Positions 3,098 to 11,037 of a stretch of DNA of 64,000 bases are shown here, piece by piece. Position 1 is the stretch's first letter. Each line of letters begins with the position of its first letter. A program made the position numbers and the translations under genes. The notes under the pieces were generated by a model. It made no database searches and was not told the DNA's origin. It saw only the letters and a program-made list of their open reading frames with translations. The stretch comes from Pseudomonadota bacterium (lineage in GTDB: Bacteria; Pseudomonadota; Alphaproteobacteria; UBA2136; UBA6156): the NCBI GenBank assembly GCA_016125035.1, contig WGMN01000001.1:258427-322426 (forward strand), written 5' to 3'.

Positions 3098-3535
3098 ATG
3101 CGGTGGTTTTGGCTTTTGGCAGTGATGGTAGCGGCGACGGCGCAGGCCGAAGTGGTGGCGCCGTTGCGCCTGGAGCTGCGCAACGCGCTGGTGCCCGAAG
3201 GCAAGGCGCCGTGGAGCGTGGCGCTGAGCGGTGATTTATATAACCCCACCAGCGACACCGTGGTGATCAGCGGGGCGAGCTCCCCCGTTGCCGGGCAGGT
3301 GGTGCCGCAGGTGTATGGTTATGATGCGAATGGCCTGCGCCAGGTGAGCGTGCCCAAGACGCTGGTGCTGGCGCCGCGCGGCGAGCTGGAATTTACCCCC
3401 GGGCAGCGTGAGCTGAAGTTTATCGGCCTGCGGCAGGATTTGAGCGCGGGCGACGAAGTGCCGCTGTACTTAAAGGATGACAAGGGCCGGGTGCAGGTGT
3501 TCCGCGTAACGGTGATTGGCGGGGTGGCCGAGTAA
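3098..3535 (+). CDS. secreted periplasmic protein (possibly DUF461/PCuAC-like)
   Basis: Signal peptide MRWFWLLAVMVAATAQA followed by a β-rich ~125-aa domain. There is no obvious Met/His copper motif, so the family call is weak. Confidence 0.4.
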   Translation: MRWFWLLAVMVAATAQAEVVAPLRLELRNALVPEGKAPWSVALSGDLYNPTSDTVVISGASSPVAGQVVPQVYGYDANGLRQVSVPKTLVLAPRGELEFTPGQRELKFIGLRQDLSAGDEVPLYLKDDKGRVQVFRVTVIGGVAE

Positions 3536-4203
3536 TGCGCGAGGTTGTGTTTGACACCGAGACCACCGGCTTTGGCGTGGAAGAGCACCGGGTGATTGAG
3601 ATAGGCTGCGTGGAGCTGGTGAACAGGCTGCCCACCGGGCGGACCTTCCATAGTTACCTCAACCCCGAGCGGGCGATCGATTATGACTCGCAGAAGATCC
3701 ACGGCATTACCGACGAGAAGGTGAAGGATGCGCCGCGTTTTGGCGAGATCGCCGAGGGGTTGCTGGCGTTTTTTGCGGACTCTCCGCTGGTGGCGCACAA
3801 TGCGGAATTTGACTTCAGCTTTGTGAACCGCGAGTTGGCGCGCTGCAATTTGGCGCCGCTGGCCAACGAAATGCGTGACAGCCTGGCCTTGGCCAAGAAG
3901 AAACTGCCCGGCCAGCGGCACAACCTGGATGCGTTGTGCCGCTATTACAGCATTGACCTTTCCGCACGGACGTACCACGGCGCGTTGCTGGACGCCCAGT
4001 TGCTGGCGGACGTGTATGTGGAGCTGACCGGCGGCCTGCAGGGCAGCATGCAGCTGGAGGCAGTGGCGGAGAAAGTTGTGGTGGCGGACAGCGAAGTGGT
4101 GGCGGTGAGTGGCGGCGGGCTGGTGGTGGAAGCCAGCGAGGCGGAAAAAGCCGCCCATGGGGCGTTTATGGCGAAGTTTGTGCCGGGTGGGCGTTGGGAG
4201 TAG
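3535..4203 (+). CDS. dnaQ: DNA polymerase III epsilon subunit (3'-5' exonuclease)
   Basis: Exo I motif VVFDTETTG, Exo II HNAEFD and Exo III YHGALLDAQLLADVY are all present. Confidence 0.9.
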   Translation: MREVVFDTETTGFGVEEHRVIEIGCVELVNRLPTGRTFHSYLNPERAIDYDSQKIHGITDEKVKDAPRFGEIAEGLLAFFADSPLVAHNAEFDFSFVNRELARCNLAPLANEMRDSLALAKKKLPGQRHNLDALCRYYSIDLSARTYHGALLDAQLLADVYVELTGGLQGSMQLEAVAEKVVVADSEVVAVSGGGLVVEASEAEKAAHGAFMAKFVPGGRWE

Positions 4204-4211
4204 TTTTTGTA

Positions 4212-4238
4212 TTAGCACTTACTTGACTTGAGTGCTAA
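4212..4238 (+). promoter_or_regulatory. CIRCE operator (HrcA binding site)
   Basis: TTAGCACTT-N9-GAGTGCTAA, a near-perfect match to the CIRCE inverted repeat, lies directly 5' of hrcA. Confidence 0.85.
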
Positions 4239-4257
4239 TGCGCCCTATTTTGGCGCC

Positions 4258-5331
4258 ATGGACAGCAAAACACCCCATACCATCACCGAGGCCAAACCGG
4301 CCGAGAAACTGAACACCCGCGCGGCCCAGGTGCTGGCGGATGTGGTGGAGAGCTACGGGCAATCCGGTGAGCCGGTGGGCAGCCGCGCGCTGGTGGAAAG
4401 CGGCAAATACCAGCTGAGCGGGGCGAGCATAAGGAACGTGATGCAGGACCTGGAGGGCATGGGCCTGCTGACCCACCCCCACACCAGCGCCGGGCGCATG
4501 CCCACCGAGCAGGGCTACCGCTATTACGCCCAGCACCTGGTGGAGGCCGAAGAGCCTGATGCGGCGGTGAAGAAGGCGTTGGAGGAGCAGATACACATTA
4601 ACAAGAGCTCCACCCAGCTTTCTCGCGATGTGACCAGCACCCTCTCTGCCCTGACCAACTGCGCCGCGCTGGTAACCACCCCCAAGAATGACAACGACCC
4701 GTTGGAAAACATGGAATTTGTACGTCTGACCGGCGACAAAGTGCTGGTGGTGATGGTGACCAAGAGCGGCGAGATTGAAAACCGCGTGATCGAGGTGCCG
4801 GCTTTTATCGGCGCAGAGGATTTGCAAAAGGCGGCCAAGAACTTGAAGCCGATGGTGATGGGGCACACCCTGGACCAGGCGCGGACGGCGATGATCGCCG
4901 GGTTGGCCGAGCAAAAAGGCCAGGTGAACGCCATGCTGGACCAGATGATGGCCGCCGCCCATGAGTGGGGACAGCCGGTGACCGCAGATGGCGCGATGGT
5001 GGTGGCAGGCAGCACGAATTTGTTCCAGTACCCCGAGTTGGTGCGCGACAGGTTGCAGAGCCTGGTGAAGCTGTTTGAGGAAAAGCGCTTGCTGATGGCG
5101 TTGGTGGAAGAAGTGCGCGGCAGCAATGGAGTGAAGATATTTGTGGGGCATGACGTGCCGGTGGTGGGCGCGGAAGACGTGAGCATTGTGGCCGCGCCTT
5201 ATGGCCATGCAGGGAAGAAGCTGATTGGCAGTTTGGGGGTTATCGGCCCGATGAGAATGAACTATAAGCGCACGTTGGGGGTGATTGATTACACCGGCAA
5301 GTTGCTGAACCGCGTGTTGGCAGAGAAGTGA
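4258..5331 (+). CDS. hrcA: heat-inducible transcription repressor HrcA
   Basis: The family-typical N-terminal winged HTH and the C-terminal region are present. The start is placed at 4258 (MDSKTPH) because the ORF-track start at 4228 lies inside CIRCE. Confidence 0.88.
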   Translation: MDSKTPHTITEAKPAEKLNTRAAQVLADVVESYGQSGEPVGSRALVESGKYQLSGASIRNVMQDLEGMGLLTHPHTSAGRMPTEQGYRYYAQHLVEAEEPDAAVKKALEEQIHINKSSTQLSRDVTSTLSALTNCAALVTTPKNDNDPLENMEFVRLTGDKVLVVMVTKSGEIENRVIEVPAFIGAEDLQKAAKNLKPMVMGHTLDQARTAMIAGLAEQKGQVNAMLDQMMAAAHEWGQPVTADGAMVVAGSTNLFQYPELVRDRLQSLVKLFEEKRLLMALVEEVRGSNGVKIFVGHDVPVVGAEDVSIVAAPYGHAGKKLIGSLGVIGPMRMNYKRTLGVIDYTGKLLNRVLAEK

Positions 5332-5367: not shown

Positions 5368-5952
5368 TTGATGGTTGAGGACAAGAACATGAAAGACGGC
5401 GCGCATATGCCGGAAGTGGATGAAGTGGTAGAGGTGGTGGATGATGCGTTGCGCGCCGAAGCCGAAGGCGCAGAGGCTGTGCATGAGACGCTGATTGCCG
5501 ACCGTGACAGCTGGAAGGATAAGGCCATGCGTGCCGCCGCCGAGGCTGAGAATGTGCGGAAACGTGCCGCCGCCGACGTGATGGAAGCGCGGCAGTACGG
5601 CATTGCCAAGTTTGCGTTGGAAATGGTGGGCGTGGGCGACAACCTGGCACGCGCGCTGGGTGCGCCGGAAGGCAACGAGAAGGCCCTGCGCGACGGGGTG
5701 GCGATGACCGCGGCGTTGCTGGAGCAGATTCTGGGCCGCTTCGGCGCGGTGAAGATTGTGGTGAAGAAGGGGGATGTGCTGAACCCGGAACTGCACCAGG
5801 CGGTAGGTGAAATGGAAAGCGGCGAAGTGGCGCCGGGCAAGATTGTGCATGAGGCGCAGGTGGGATTTACGCTGAACGGGCGGCTGCTGCGGCCGAGCAT
5901 GGTGATGGTGGCCAAAGCGCCGGAAGCGCGGGGGGGGGAGGCGGTGGCATGA
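5368..5952 (+). CDS. grpE: nucleotide exchange factor GrpE
   Basis: Acidic N-terminus, a long helix, and the C-terminal β-domain ending …FTLNGRLLRPSMVMVAKA. Confidence 0.9.
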   Translation: MMVEDKNMKDGAHMPEVDEVVEVVDDALRAEAEGAEAVHETLIADRDSWKDKAMRAAAEAENVRKRAAADVMEARQYGIAKFALEMVGVGDNLARALGAPEGNEKALRDGVAMTAALLEQILGRFGAVKIVVKKGDVLNPELHQAVGEMESGEVAPGKIVHEAQVGFTLNGRLLRPSMVMVAKAPEARGGEAVA

Positions 5953-6539
5953 ACAACGAAATCGAAGCCAAGTATTTGAGTGTAAACCTAGAAGGTTGTC
6001 GCGCAGATTTGCGCAATGCAGAATTTTCCTGCGTGCGGCCATGGAGCCTGATGCGGCGTTATACCTTTATGCTGACAGAGCTTAACCCCAGCCTGCATAA
6101 ATGGGCGCGGGTACGCGATGAAGGCGACAAAATAACAATGACCTTTAAACAGGTGCATGACGCCCAGCGCATTAACGGCACGGAAGAGGTTGAATTTGAG
6201 GTTTCTGACTTTGACAGTGCGGTTTTGTTTATGCAACGAATCGGCTTCATCCACTGGGCTTACCAGGAGAATCAGCGGGAGACATGGGTGAAGGACGGAA
6301 TAGAAGTGACCCTTAATGAATGGCCCGCCTTACCGCCCTTTGTGGAGATTGAGGCCGCCAACGAAACCCTGGTAAAAGACGCCAGCAAGGAGCTGGGTTT
6401 TGACTACGGCAAGGCAGTGTTCGGAGGTATCGGCAGGCTCTACGGCCTGCAAACCGCTTTTACGGAAGAAGATATTTCCAACGTGCGCGAACTGACTTTT
6501 TCCAAAGCAAAGACCCTGCAAGTGGAAGTTGGTACATGA
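5949..6539 (+). CDS. CYTH-domain protein (CyaB/triphosphate-tunnel metalloenzyme family)
   Basis: N-terminal EIEAKYL motif and a ~190-aa length. The start overlaps the grpE stop (ATGA). Local GC is clearly lower than the neighbouring genes. Confidence 0.65.
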   Translation: MNNEIEAKYLSVNLEGCRADLRNAEFSCVRPWSLMRRYTFMLTELNPSLHKWARVRDEGDKITMTFKQVHDAQRINGTEEVEFEVSDFDSAVLFMQRIGFIHWAYQENQRETWVKDGIEVTLNEWPALPPFVEIEAANETLVKDASKELGFDYGKAVFGGIGRLYGLQTAFTEEDISNVRELTFSKAKTLQVEVGT

Positions 6540-6994
6540 AGGACCGTTTGACCATTGTGGAGGCTTGCACCGCGGATGAGCGGGAGGCTTATTTTGGGTT
6601 GCGCCACCAGGTGTTTGTGGAAGAGCAAAATGTGCCCGAGGAGATTGAGCGCGACAGTTTTGACGAGTTGCCTGAAACCAGGCATCTGTTGGGGTATGTG
6701 GACGGCAAGCCCGCCGCCACCGTGCGGGTGACCTACCCCCAGCCGGGCAAGGCCAAGATTGGCCGCCTGGCGGTGCTGCCGGATGCGCGTGGCAGCGGCT
6801 GTGCGCGGGCGTTGCTGGAAACGGTGATGAAGGACTTCCCCGAGCAGGGCATTACCCTGGCGGTGATGAGCGCGCAGAGCTATTTGCAGCGTTTTTATGA
6901 GAGTGTGGGCTTTGTGGTGGTGGGAGAGCCCTACAAGGAAGCCGGCCTGGACCATGTGTGGATGGAAATGCCGGTGAAGGAGATGGCGGCGTGA
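6536..6994 (+). CDS. GNAT family N-acetyltransferase
   Basis: An acetyl-CoA-binding motif (RGSGCARALLE) and a GNAT-typical length. The start overlaps the CYTH stop. Confidence 0.75.
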   Translation: MKDRLTIVEACTADEREAYFGLRHQVFVEEQNVPEEIERDSFDELPETRHLLGYVDGKPAATVRVTYPQPGKAKIGRLAVLPDARGSGCARALLETVMKDFPEQGITLAVMSAQSYLQRFYESVGFVVVGEPYKEAGLDHVWMEMPVKEMAA

Positions 6995-7053
6995 CTTTCA
7001 CCGCGAGATTTTATCTTTAACAACCCTAGTATTGAGACAAAGGAGAGACGACG

Positions 7054-8967
<1,914 letters not shown>

Positions 8968-9169: not shown

Positions 9170-9829
9170 ATGACGCGACGCTACGCCCTGTTGGCCACCA
9201 TGGTGGCCCTGCTGGCCCTGCCCGGGGCGGCTTTGGCGTGGAATAGCAATTACATGAGCGGGTATGGAGGGTCATCCGGTTACGGCGGCTCCGGGCGTTA
9301 TATGAGCGGCTATGGCGGCTCGCACGGTTATGGTGGGTCGGGGCGTTATATGAGCGGGTACTCGGGCAGCCGTGGGTCTTATACCTCGCACTACAGCCAT
9401 GGGTCGTCTTCGTACGCTTCCAGGGCGTCTTCCGGCAGCGGGACGCATTACTACCACGTAGGTGTAAGCAGCAATAATGGGGGCGGGACGTATCCGTTCA
9501 GCTTTTACCGCCGTGGCGGCTATGACACCCGCAACGGCTACACCAGTGCTTACGCCCCCACGGAACGCCCGCACCGCGCCAGCTACGAAGCCTACCTGGA
9601 GCGCCTGCACCGCAACGCCCAGCAAGGCCGCAGCAGCTACATAGACACCGAAAGCATGGCCGCGCGCCAAGCCAACCCCCGCCCGGTGGCGCTGATGGAT
9701 GTTGAGCCCGCCGCCGGGCCTGCCAACACCCAACAACAGCCCGCCATGTGCGGCAACTGGCTGGGCCGCCCGGTGGAATGCCAGGAAACCACCACCAAGT
9801 GGCAGCCGTGGATGGAGCTTTACGATTAA
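9170..9829 (+). CDS. secreted Gly/Ser/Tyr-repeat protein (hypothetical)
   Basis: Signal peptide …ALPGAALA followed by tandem RYMSGYGGSxGYGGSG repeats, then a Cys-containing C-terminal domain. It is inserted between dnaK and dnaJ. Confidence 0.6.
   Translation: MTRRYALLATMVALLALPGAALAWNSNYMSGYGGSSGYGGSGRYMSGYGGSHGYGGSGRYMSGYSGSRGSYTSHYSHGSSSYASRASSGSGTHYYHVGVSSNNGGGTYPFSFYRRGGYDTRNGYTSAYAPTERPHRASYEAYLERLHRNAQQGRSSYIDTESMAARQANPRPVALMDVEPAAGPANTQQQPAMCGNWLGRPVECQETTTKWQPWMELYD
9251..9375 (+). repeat. 54-nt tandem repeat (about 2.3 copies) encoding RYMSGYGGSHGYGGSG
   Basis: Seen directly in the nucleotide sequence. It lies inside the 9170-9829 CDS. Confidence 0.7.
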
Positions 9830-9885
9830 AACCGCCAGCCCCGTTGAGGAGGGGTTGACCGCGGCTTATCACTCGGGATATTGAA

Positions 9886-11037
9886 GTGATAATGGCGCAG
9901 GATTATTACCAGATTTTAGGCGTGGCCAAAGGGGCCAGCGAGGCCGAGCTGAAGGCCGCCTACCGCAAGGCGGCGATGAAGTATCACCCCGACCGCAACC
10001 CGGGGGATGCGGCGGCGGAGGCTAAATTCAAGGAAGCCAACGAAGCCTACGATGTGTTGCGCGACCCGCAAAAGCGCGCCGCCTATGACCGTTTTGGCCA
10101 CGACGCCTTTAAAAACGGTGGTGGTGGCGGCAACCCGTTTGGCGGCGGTGGCGGGCCGGGGGGTGGCTTCCACTTTGAAGGCAACTTTGACGACCTGTTT
10201 GAGGATTTGATGGGTGGGTTGTTTGGCGGCGGCGGACCGCAGACGCGGCGCAGCCATGTGAGCCGCGGCGCGGATTTGCGCTACAACCTGAACGTGGATT
10301 TGAAGGACGCCTACACCGGCACCAAGGTGGAAGTGGCCTATCCCACCACCGTGACCTGCGAAGTGTGCCACGGCAACGGCGCCAAGCCCGGCACCAAGCC
10401 CACCACCTGCCCCACCTGCGGCGGCGCGGGAAATGTGCACTTCCGCCAGGGGTTCTTCCAGATGAGCCGCACCTGCCCGGATTGCGGCGGCACGGGGCAG
10501 GTGATTAAGGACAAATGCCCGGAGTGCAAAGGCAGTGGCCGGTTGCGCAAGAACAAGAAATTGCAGGTGAACGTGCCCGCCGGGGTGGACGACGGCACGC
10601 GGTTGCGGCTGGCTGGAGAGGGCGAAGCCGGATTGCACGGCGGCGAAGCGGGAGACCTGTTTGTGTTTGTGAGCGTGAAGCCGCACCCGATTTTTAAGCG
10701 CGAAGGGATGAATCTGGCGATGGAAGTGCCGGTGGGCATGGTGGATGCCGCGCTGGGCACCGAGGTGGAGATACCCACCGTGACCGGCGAGAAGACCACG
10801 CTGAAGATACCCGCCGGAACGCAGCCGGGTGAAGTGGTGCGGCTGCCGGGCTTTGGCATGCCCGCCCTGGCGCGCCCGCGCGACAAGGGGGATTTGCAGG
10901 TGACGGTGGCGGTGGATGTGCCCACGCGGTTGAGCAAGGCGCAGAGGGAGGCGCTGGAAGGGTTGCGCGAGGAGCTGGGGGCGAGCCGTGGGGTTGAGGG
11001 GTTTAAGGCGAAGCTGAAGAAATTTTGGCAGGGGTAA
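9886..11037 (+). CDS. dnaJ: molecular chaperone DnaJ
   Basis: J-domain with HPDRN, a G/F-rich region, and four CxxCxGxG zinc-finger repeats. Confidence 0.97.
   Translation: MIMAQDYYQILGVAKGASEAELKAAYRKAAMKYHPDRNPGDAAAEAKFKEANEAYDVLRDPQKRAAYDRFGHDAFKNGGGGGNPFGGGGGPGGGFHFEGNFDDLFEDLMGGLFGGGGPQTRRSHVSRGADLRYNLNVDLKDAYTGTKVEVAYPTTVTCEVCHGNGAKPGTKPTTCPTCGGAGNVHFRQGFFQMSRTCPDCGGTGQVIKDKCPECKGSGRLRKNKKLQVNVPAGVDDGTRLRLAGEGEAGLHGGEAGDLFVFVSVKPHPIFKREGMNLAMEVPVGMVDAALGTEVEIPTVTGEKTTLKIPAGTQPGEVVRLPGFGMPALARPRDKGDLQVTVAVDVPTRLSKAQREALEGLREELGASRGVEGFKAKLKKFWQG

Follow-up and report, generated by a model that had tools for sequence, protein, structure and literature searches.

We analysed a stretch of 64,000 nucleotides from contig WGMN01000001.1 of a Pseudomonadota bacterium (assembly GCA_016125035.1), here called the window, for a heat-shock locus in which two non-chaperone genes stand between grpE and dnaK. 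The first encodes a protein of the CYTH superfamily, the triphosphate tunnel metalloenzymes (TTMs), and the second an N-acyltransferase of the GNAT family. The lineage with this locus is uncultured and known from metagenome-assembled genomes (MAGs) only, labelled Proteobacteria or Alphaproteobacteria, and all data used here are MAGs and metagenome contigs. The locus is composed of the following features.

4212-4238, forward strand: CIRCE (controlling inverted repeat of chaperone expression) operator, TTAGCACTT-N9-GAGTGCTAA, with a -35-like TTGAC in its spacer and one mismatch to the consensus; proposed control site of the whole operon
4258-5331, forward strand: hrcA, heat-shock repressor (Pfam HrcA, 182 bits); the open reading frame (ORF) opens with TTG at 4228 and has its first ATG at 4258
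5368-5952, forward strand: grpE (Pfam GrpE, 132 bits), likely start ATG 5371
5949-6539, forward strand: CYTH/TTM gene, 196 amino acids (Pfam CYTH, 28.4 bits; also structure and homologs)
6536-6994, forward strand: GNAT N-acyltransferase gene of the ElaA/SACOL1063 type, 152 amino acids (Pfam Acetyltransf_10, 58.9 bits; PDB 5jq4, E=5.5e-23)
6995-7053, forward strand: GNAT-dnaK spacer of 59 nt with the Shine-Dalgarno sequence of dnaK, AAGGAGAG; no terminator seen
7054-8967, forward strand: dnaK (Pfam HSP70, 902 bits)
9170-9829, forward strand: lineage-specific ORF of 219 amino acids between dnaK and dnaJ; no library match, homologs at the same position in relatives
9866-9892, forward strand: degenerate CIRCE-like inverted repeat overlapping the dnaJ start, three mismatches
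9886-11037, forward strand: dnaJ (Pfam DnaJ, DnaJ_C and DnaJ_CXXCXGXG), likely start ATG 9892

The sequence-only reading had placed the CYTH and GNAT genes inside the heat-shock locus, between grpE and dnaK, and had joined them to grpE by ATGA overlaps. Direct reading of the sequence bears out both statements: the CYTH ATG (5949-5951) overlaps the grpE TGA (5950-5952), and the GNAT ATG (6536-6538) overlaps the CYTH TGA (6537-6539). ATGA is the commonest gene overlap in compact bacterial operons, so the overlaps by themselves are unremarkable and the unusual part is the gene content. The arrangement is indeed not the textbook one, and the literature searched on CYTH/TTM proteins with heat-shock genes, on Patescibacteria and on bacterial thiamine triphosphatases (ThTPases) gave no prior description of it. 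The GGAGG Shine-Dalgarno sequence of CYTH lies 7 nt 5′ of its ATG in the 3′ end of grpE (about 5930-5941). A run of nine G residues (5930-5938) in the final grpE codons is also part of this Shine-Dalgarno region; homopolymers of that length are prone to slippage and assembly error, and a change in length would alter both the GrpE C-terminus and the coupling of CYTH.

The CIRCE element in front of hrcA, with its single mismatch, compares with 0.01 matches expected by chance, and a promoter-like TTGACT-17-TATTTT (4223-4251) overlaps it. An equivalent CIRCE with TTGAC in the spacer stands upstream of hrcA in the related loci L081, L084, L086, L088, L089, L091 and L048. Promoters and terminators were sought by simple consensus scans, in which no terminator-like, promoter-like or CIRCE site was observed between grpE and dnaK (5949-7053). 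The RNA of the grpE/CYTH junction folds less stably than its shuffles (z=+1.6), as does that of the 59-nt GNAT-dnaK spacer (z=+1.66), and an Rfam scan of the whole window returned no RNA family, thus no ROSE element or other thermometer. No sigma-32-type promoter with acceptable spacing was seen 5′ of dnaK when the 59-nt spacer was inspected by eye, which was not a formal search. In two relatives that carry CYTH, the gap between CYTH and dnaK is only 25 nt (L084) and 13 nt (L091), so that there is no room for a separate dnaK promoter. In all seven carriers of CYTH, the gap between grpE and CYTH ranges from -4 to +4 nt.

These observations suggest that hrcA-grpE-CYTH-GNAT-dnaK-orf-dnaJ is probably one HrcA-controlled operon of the Gram-positive type. 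CYTH would be made from the hrcA-grpE-dnaK transcript by translational coupling to grpE, since it has no evident promoter or terminator of its own and since its start and the grpE stop overlap or adjoin in all carriers. The earlier proposal that both genes ride on the grpE transcript thereby gains the CIRCE element before hrcA, the lack of a terminator or CIRCE site between grpE and dnaK in the scans, the unstructured junctions and the short gaps in relatives, while the shared transcript itself stays at the level of a probable reading of these signals. Within the proposed promoter, the predicted -10 element TATTTT (4246-4251) leaves only about 6 nt to the first ATG in frame with hrcA (4258). 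The hrcA mRNA may thus have little or no leader; alternatively, translation may begin at TTG 4228 inside the operator. The tblastn alignments with relatives begin at residues 19-28 of the long ORF.

Conservation and loss of the CYTH gene in related loci

Homologs of the window CYTH protein at 50-69% identity come from proteobacterial MAGs. The core hrcA-grpE-CYTH was found in six distinct related lineages (L081-83, L084/85, L086/87, L088, L089/90 and L091), whose identity to the window is 50-69% for CYTH, 49-68% for grpE and 65-74% for hrcA. The lower GC content that had been noticed in the CYTH segment is real and specific to this gene: its GC is 0.504 and its GC at third codon positions (GC3) is 0.579, against a GC3 of 0.76-0.82 in eight neighbours including GNAT (0.77), and it has the second lowest GC3 of the 63 ORFs in the window (mean 0.777, standard deviation 0.072).

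This composition had been taken to suggest that the segment was acquired, and the CYTH-GNAT pair could be a low-GC islet inserted recently into this genome. Besides the GC of 0.50 and the GC3 of 0.58 against the window mean of 0.78, such a reading could draw on the nearest CYTH relatives outside the lineage, which occur in low-GC Patescibacteria (median GC of the loci 0.44), and on the GNAT protein, to which nothing close was found in 5.8 billion proteins. It is contradicted by synteny, as six relatives hold CYTH in the same slot, with a divergence that parallels that of grpE and with the same GC3 deficit relative to the neighbours, which is present in every related carrier locus. Furthermore, the carriers are monophyletic and roughly co-phyletic with their hosts, the gene that is unique to this genome, GNAT, has a native-like GC3 of 0.77, and CYTH and GNAT travel together in no other locus. 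A recent acquisition is for these reasons quite unlikely, and the inference of an acquisition in this genome does not stand. Judged from these comparisons, the acquisition of CYTH is real but old, at the level of the clade.

Because the carrier loci had been found through CYTH itself, which is circular, relatives were also sought through HrcA. This search returned loci as closely related as the carriers in which grpE is followed directly by dnaK with a spacer of 35-60 nt (L092, L099 and L172); identity to the window is 72% for hrcA and 88% for dnaK in L092, and 75% for hrcA in L172. The direct order grpE-dnaK also occurs in the more distant relatives L095-L098, L101, L174, L175 and L176, and L173 carries a YfbR-like gene and a Bro-N gene in the slot without CYTH. 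The possibility, raised with the sequence-only reading, that the same insertion is universal and already annotated in the lineage does not hold: CYTH is patchy, being absent from L092, L099 and L172-L176, and the database names of its homologs are generic ('CYTH domain-containing protein', 'adenylyl cyclase', 'adenylate cyclase class 2').

Host trees were built by neighbour-joining from concatenated HrcA, GrpE and DnaK with 200 bootstraps. All carriers fall into one clade, with L099 and the more distant loci outside. The CYTH-less loci L092, L172 and L173 are nested within this clade, and L172 is the sister of the carrier L091 with 100% support. The DNA of these two is 88-89% identical over 11 kb, and they differ at the junction by a clean indel of 60 nt versus 611 nt. 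The unrooted CYTH tree agrees with the host tree except for one node of 80%. One gain of CYTH followed by at least three losses is the most parsimonious history of these sequences; a fourth loss is possible, because the node that excludes L174 has only 66% support.

Where the gene is kept, its protein is constrained. As synonymous divergence (dS) is saturated in CYTH, the uncorrected ratio of non-synonymous to synonymous differences (pN/pS) and the non-synonymous divergence (dN) were used instead of a formal dN/dS. In carrier pairs, pN/pS of CYTH is 0.2-0.5, which argues for purifying selection, and dN of CYTH and grpE is 0.18 and 0.20, 0.33 and 0.34, 0.26 and 0.44, and 0.38 and 0.26, respectively. 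The synonymous differences (pS) of CYTH reach 0.60-0.89 compared to 0.51-0.72 in the neighbours and are top or joint top in five of five pairs, which fits a gene outside the GC3-rich codon bias of the locus. Since ordinary amelioration should have removed a donor signature, something appears to keep AT-ending codons in CYTH. Candidate causes are selection for low translation in a highly expressed operon or a constraint on mRNA structure.

Predicted enzymatic type of the CYTH protein

The match of the protein to Pfam CYTH (PF01928) is weak and partial (28.4 bits against a gathering threshold of 23.2, residues 50-142) and is confirmed by structure. The AlphaFold2 model (mean predicted local distance difference test score 92.2, predicted template modelling score 0.86) forms a beta-barrel tunnel of eight long strands. 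All of the top 20 PDB matches of this model in Foldseek are CYTH/TTM proteins, first PH1012, Pfu-838710 and SaTTM, followed by class IV adenylate cyclases (AC-IV) and ThTPases. SaTTM (PDB 7ns8) is also matched by sequence, with E=3e-7, and with E=1e-12 when a profile is used. No match to CYTH was obtained in searches of PHROG and PADLOC.

The residues expected of a catalytically competent tunnel are in place. The ExExK motif is E4-I-E6-A-K8, with E4 and E6 kept in 116 of 119 homologs; K8 is a lysine in 65 of the 119, with T or Q in many Patescibacteria, and in all operon carriers. R37 occurs in 118 of 119 homologs, and R54, R56, K67, R110, E80, E107, E133 and E135 occur in every one. In the motif W52-A-R54-V-R56, position 52 is aromatic throughout (W in 92, F in 20 and Y in 7 of the 119 sequences). 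The protein is thus predicted to be a catalytically intact two-metal triphosphate-tunnel hydrolase.

Among known enzymes, the archaeal single-domain TTMs (SaTTM/Saci_0718, PH1012 and Pfu-838710; cluster 3 of Vogt et al. 2021) are the best matches in both sequence and fold. Like CYTH, they have about 190 amino acids, the motifs ExExK, RxR and ExE, and an eight-stranded tunnel. SaTTM works as a two-metal triphosphatase, also hydrolyses ATP and dATP, and has no cyclase activity (PMC8233210). On the other hand, they share only 20-25% identity with CYTH, the SaTTM residue at the invariant aromatic position of the CYTH family is small (A54), and CYTH is bacterial and lies in a heat-shock operon.

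The CyaB-type class IV cyclases (Aeromonas, Yersinia) share the superfamily and the fold, and the CYTH protein might accordingly make cyclic AMP as a second messenger of heat shock. The database names given above, a weak match to TIGR00318 cyaB (36.2 bits) and Foldseek matches to Yersinia AC-IV with a template modelling (TM) score of 0.70-0.79 point in this direction. Cyclases, however, require three features, namely HFxxxxExExK, replacement of the first xRxR arginine by a small residue, and ExA; hydrolases keep ExE (Vogt et al. 2021, PMC8233210). All three determinants of AC-IV fail in CYTH: the HF motif is absent, as the start MNNEIEAK leaves three residues before ExExK; the first Arg of xRxR is kept (R54); and the second Glu of ExE is kept (E135) instead of Ala. 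In addition, the TIGR00318 score is below the equivalog cut-off of 57.95, and by sequence CYTH is closest to the archaeal TTM cluster, in which SaTTM forms no cyclic nucleotide (PMC8233210). Activity as a class IV adenylate cyclase is contradicted by these features, and we regard it as highly improbable.

The aromatic residue at position 52 bears on the substrate. ThTPases are marked by W/YxRxR together with ExExK and ExE, a motif whose aromatic ring is positioned for stacking against the substrate's thiazolium (Vogt et al. 2021, PMC8233210). W52 of CYTH aligns with A54 of SaTTM, which has been equated with W53 of mouse ThTPase, the residue that stacks on the thiazole (Vogt et al. 2021, PMC8233210), so the equivalence of W52 and ThTPase W53 rests on the SaTTM alignment and this published correspondence. 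It points to a substrate whose triphosphate bears an aromatic or heterocyclic group, for example thiamine triphosphate (ThTP) or a nucleoside polyphosphate, and not to bare tripolyphosphate. The mammalian 25-kDa ThTPase (CYTH cluster 8) shares W/YxRxR, ExExK and ExE with CYTH, differs from it in sequence and is only moderately similar in fold. The motif could be independent and serve another aromatic substrate. No ThTPase chain was found in the PDB by phmmer or with the family profile at E values up to 10, and the TM scores of CYTH to the ThTPases 3tvl, 5a64 and 3bhd are 0.5-0.6, below those to archaeal TTMs and AC-IV. As it has no sequence match to the metazoan ThTPases, CYTH was not filed as a sequence-related ThTPase.

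Family distribution and other occupants of the operon

A scan of species-representative GTDB genomes with an N-terminal peptide pattern gave 415 confirmed relatives of CYTH, and the neighbourhoods of the best 80 were inspected. These 80 belong almost all to Patescibacteria, Saccharibacteria or Parcubacteria and show 37-48% identity; a few carry the labels Bdellovibrionales, Gammaproteobacteria or archaea, and the close relatives were not among the matches. A profile search of 1.84 billion representatives yielded about 500 clusters at E <= 1e-30. In the family tree the operon carriers are monophyletic, and the economical inference is that their ancestor received CYTH from a donor of the Patescibacteria type. 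The patescibacterial loci have no recurrent neighbours among the 76 upstream and 75 downstream genes (RNase Y is upstream in 6 and YmdB downstream in 4). Fusion partners in the CYTH subfamily had no Pfam match except for one methyltransferase and gave no functional hint.

One locus of the best 80, L048, does place CYTH next to chaperone genes, in the order hrcA, NUDIX-GrpE, HSP20, CYTH, AlaX-like, dnaK, dnaJ with a perfect CIRCE in front; the AlaX-like gene encodes an editing domain. Since its CYTH is of the Patescibacteria type, this association would have arisen independently. It was not counted as statistical support, as the chance of one such case in 80 is a few tenths by a rough estimate. 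Fusions of GrpE were also observed: an N-terminal NUDIX-GrpE of 288 amino acids in L048 (1347-2213), and a GrpE-ASCH of 282 amino acids in a close relative of the window lineage (P0195), one of those found through HrcA, which has this fusion in place of the CYTH arrangement.

The interval between CYTH and dnaK differs from locus to locus.

L084 and L091: no gene
L081 and L088: an ORF of 87 amino acids
L086: a YfbR-like HD protein (L086 6582-7160)
L089: a YfbR-like protein and a Bro-N protein (L089 6597-8051)
window: the GNAT gene

Two of these occupants look phage- or defence-like. The YfbR-like occupant matches phage deoxynucleoside monophosphate (dNMP) phosphatases (phrog_318, E=3e-51), and the Bro-N occupant, with a GC3 of 0.47, matches the PADLOC candidate defence system PDC-S13 (E=8e-113) and phrog_8036 (E=1e-88). 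The stretches concerned are L089 6597-8051, L173 6692-8140 and L086 6582-7160. The junction might accordingly collect defence genes that are induced by the proteotoxic stress of infection, with CYTH acting, for example, as an effector that degrades nucleoside triphosphates. The matches of Bro-N, together with its foreign GC3, and those of the YfbR-like protein would fit this idea. However, neither CYTH nor GNAT has an assignment in PADLOC, CYTH has none in PHROG, CYTH is present without those partners in L084, L091 and the window, and PDC-S13 is itself a candidate system only. Taken together, a defence role for CYTH is highly improbable.

The GNAT gene appears only in the window. Apart from itself, no homolog above 45% identity was found among the 5.8 billion proteins, and the gene is absent from all related loci. 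The protein is scored above the cut-offs by five Pfam GNAT models, and its acetyl-CoA motif, R85-G-S-G88-C-A90 as read from the translation, is intact. Its best PDB matches are the small GNATs of the ElaA/SACOL1063/PA0115 group (5jq4, 5.5e-23; 1xeb; 5z6n). The NCBIfam model PRK10314 gives 53 bits, below its cut-off, and identity to any known protein is at most 45%; the physiological substrates of the ElaA group are themselves unknown. PHROG and PADLOC searches returned generic acetyltransferase matches only. As far as these comparisons reach, GNAT is a one-off addition private to this genome, and because it is unique despite its native-like GC3, composition says little about how old a gene of this locus is.

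Gene content also varies in a second slot, the dnaK|dnaJ interval. The window ORF at 9170-9829 has no match in Pfam, NCBIfam, PHROGs or PADLOC. Homologs at the same position were found in L084 (8681-9124), L086 (9241-9621), L089 (10117-10497), L091 (8537-8923), L172 (8637-9023), L173 (10189-10992) and L174 (8532-8927). This family has a signal peptide, G/S/Y-rich repeats of variable length (three YMSGYGGSxGYGGSGR units in the window and a much longer repeat region in L173) and a C-terminus with a conserved 'GY(T/S)G..T.I.RPHR' motif and two cysteines. It is odd to find a gene for a secreted low-complexity protein within a dnaK-dnaJ operon, and the gene occurs in CYTH-less relatives too. Besides this small secreted ORF, the interval holds an HD/YfbR-like gene in L174 (9079-9711) and a PfkB-family kinase gene in L175 (9286-10137). 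The second CIRCE-like repeat of the window, TTATCACTC-N9-AAGTGATAA (9866-9892), spans the ribosome-binding site and start of dnaJ and has counterparts in L086 (9677-9703) and L089 (10590-10616), with three to four mismatches across the group. It could be a second HrcA site or an element acting at the level of the mRNA.

Upstream of the operon, a gene for a PCuAC-like protein (3098-3535, forward strand) and one for an RNase T/DnaQ-type exonuclease (3535-4203, forward strand) abut at 3535. Most relatives have an ABC transporter, made of an ATPase and two ABC2 membrane proteins, between these two genes (e.g. L084 539-4241), so the transporter was lost or moved in the window (3098-4203).

History and proposed role of the CYTH gene

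The whole is best explained as follows, and we hold this account to be probable, with reservations given below. The ancestral order would have been hrcA-grpE-dnaK, and a single insertion would have brought CYTH to the grpE|dnaK junction in one sub-clade. From then on it would have passed down mostly by vertical descent, with purifying selection acting on it and three losses or more, while the site just 3′ of it repeatedly took up other small genes, GNAT being the occupant in the window. CYTH and GNAT would be released from repression along with the chaperones once proteotoxic stress inactivates HrcA, and CYTH would hydrolyse a triphosphate-bearing metabolite.

ThTP and adenosine thiamine triphosphate accumulate in Escherichia coli under starvation stress. 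Diadenosine tetraphosphate (Ap4A) rises on heat shock and binds DnaK, GroEL and ClpB (PMC10148737). With this background a link to stress is conceivable, with these compounds as no more than candidate substrates of CYTH. A more far-reaching version takes the operon as a stress-inducible platform for exchangeable small enzymes that clear phosphorylated, nucleotide-like metabolites. Its occupants would be the CYTH triphosphatase, the YfbR-like dNMP phosphatase, the NUDIX and ASCH domains fused to GrpE, and the PfkB kinase. CYTH would then be the first bacterial hydrolase of TTM fold for ThTP or for compounds of the nucleoside tetraphosphate or Ap4A type, made with DnaK and GrpE to remove a heat-shock metabolite. 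We consider this version unlikely.

Several points weigh against the account of an old, vertically inherited and stress-expressed hydrolase. An old vertical history leaves the persistently low GC3 of CYTH unexplained. The trees are distance-based, come from three proteins and have a node of 66% at the exclusion of L174. CYTH is dispensable, given at least three independent losses, one of them between genomes of about 88% DNA identity, and this weakens the case for a necessary role with the chaperones. Co-transcription and heat induction are suggested by the absence of signals in simple consensus scans and by short spacers, and the substrate class by one motif and a published correspondence. 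The ExExK lysine is kept in only 65 of 119 family members, and L048 is the only one of the best 80 family loci in which chaperone genes stand next to CYTH. Finally, the junction also takes unrelated cargo (the phage-like dNMP phosphatase, Bro-N/PDC-S13 and the 87-amino-acid ORF), so that it may be a permissive site and not a sign of function.

The last point leads to the most serious alternative, in which grpE|dnaK is a tolerated landing site in a strongly expressed, terminator-free operon and its occupants are unrelated to chaperones or heat. The contents of the slot vary among relatives (none, GNAT, the 87-amino-acid ORF, YfbR-like, or YfbR-like and Bro-N), the dnaK|dnaJ interval varies as well (HD in L174, PfkB in L175), two occupants are phage- or defence-like in nature, CYTH was lost at least three times, and the patescibacterial homologs lack chaperone neighbours. 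Unlike the other occupants, though, CYTH was kept while hrcA diverged to as little as about 65% identity. Its catalytic residues do not vary, its dN resembles that of grpE, and the grpE stop and the CYTH start are never more than 4 nt apart. Mere hitchhiking is therefore possible and, in our view, clearly less likely than the functional account. The two are not exclusive and overlap in part, as a gene can be both cargo and expressed under stress.

The Gram-positive hrcA-grpE-dnaK-dnaJ operons offer the closest parallel in organisation. They resemble the window in gene order, in the CIRCE at the hrcA promoter and in tolerating non-chaperone passengers. The operon of Bacillus subtilis has the non-chaperone genes yqeT, yqeU and yqeV after dnaJ. 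That of Streptococcus pneumoniae is grpE-dnaK-orf-dnaJ (PMC10602874) and thus has, like the window, a small ORF between dnaK and dnaJ. In contrast, the passengers CYTH and GNAT of the window lie between grpE and dnaK, and the host is a proteobacterial lineage known from MAGs.

The CYTH superfamily, the GNAT family and the CIRCE operon were already known. New, and described in none of the literature searched, are that CYTH stands between grpE and dnaK, that an uncultured lineage has kept it for long and lost it repeatedly, that it apparently stems from Patescibacteria, and that an aromatic residue of the ThTPase type marks the entire subfamily. CYTH/TTM enzymes are present in every domain of life, and their physiological roles in prokaryotes are largely unknown (PMC8233210). 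If CYTH is only a passenger, the value of the finding is smaller and lies in a well-documented case of gain, retention and repeated loss within an essential operon. A CYTH subfamily long fixed in a heat-shock operon would provide a testable context, the stress-coupled removal of triphosphate compounds, and the invariant ThTPase-type aromatic residue makes the biochemical prediction specific. The locus further shows that the interior of a core chaperone operon can serve as a landing pad for accessory genes, and suggests that a family typical of Patescibacteria crossed there into a proteobacterial lineage.

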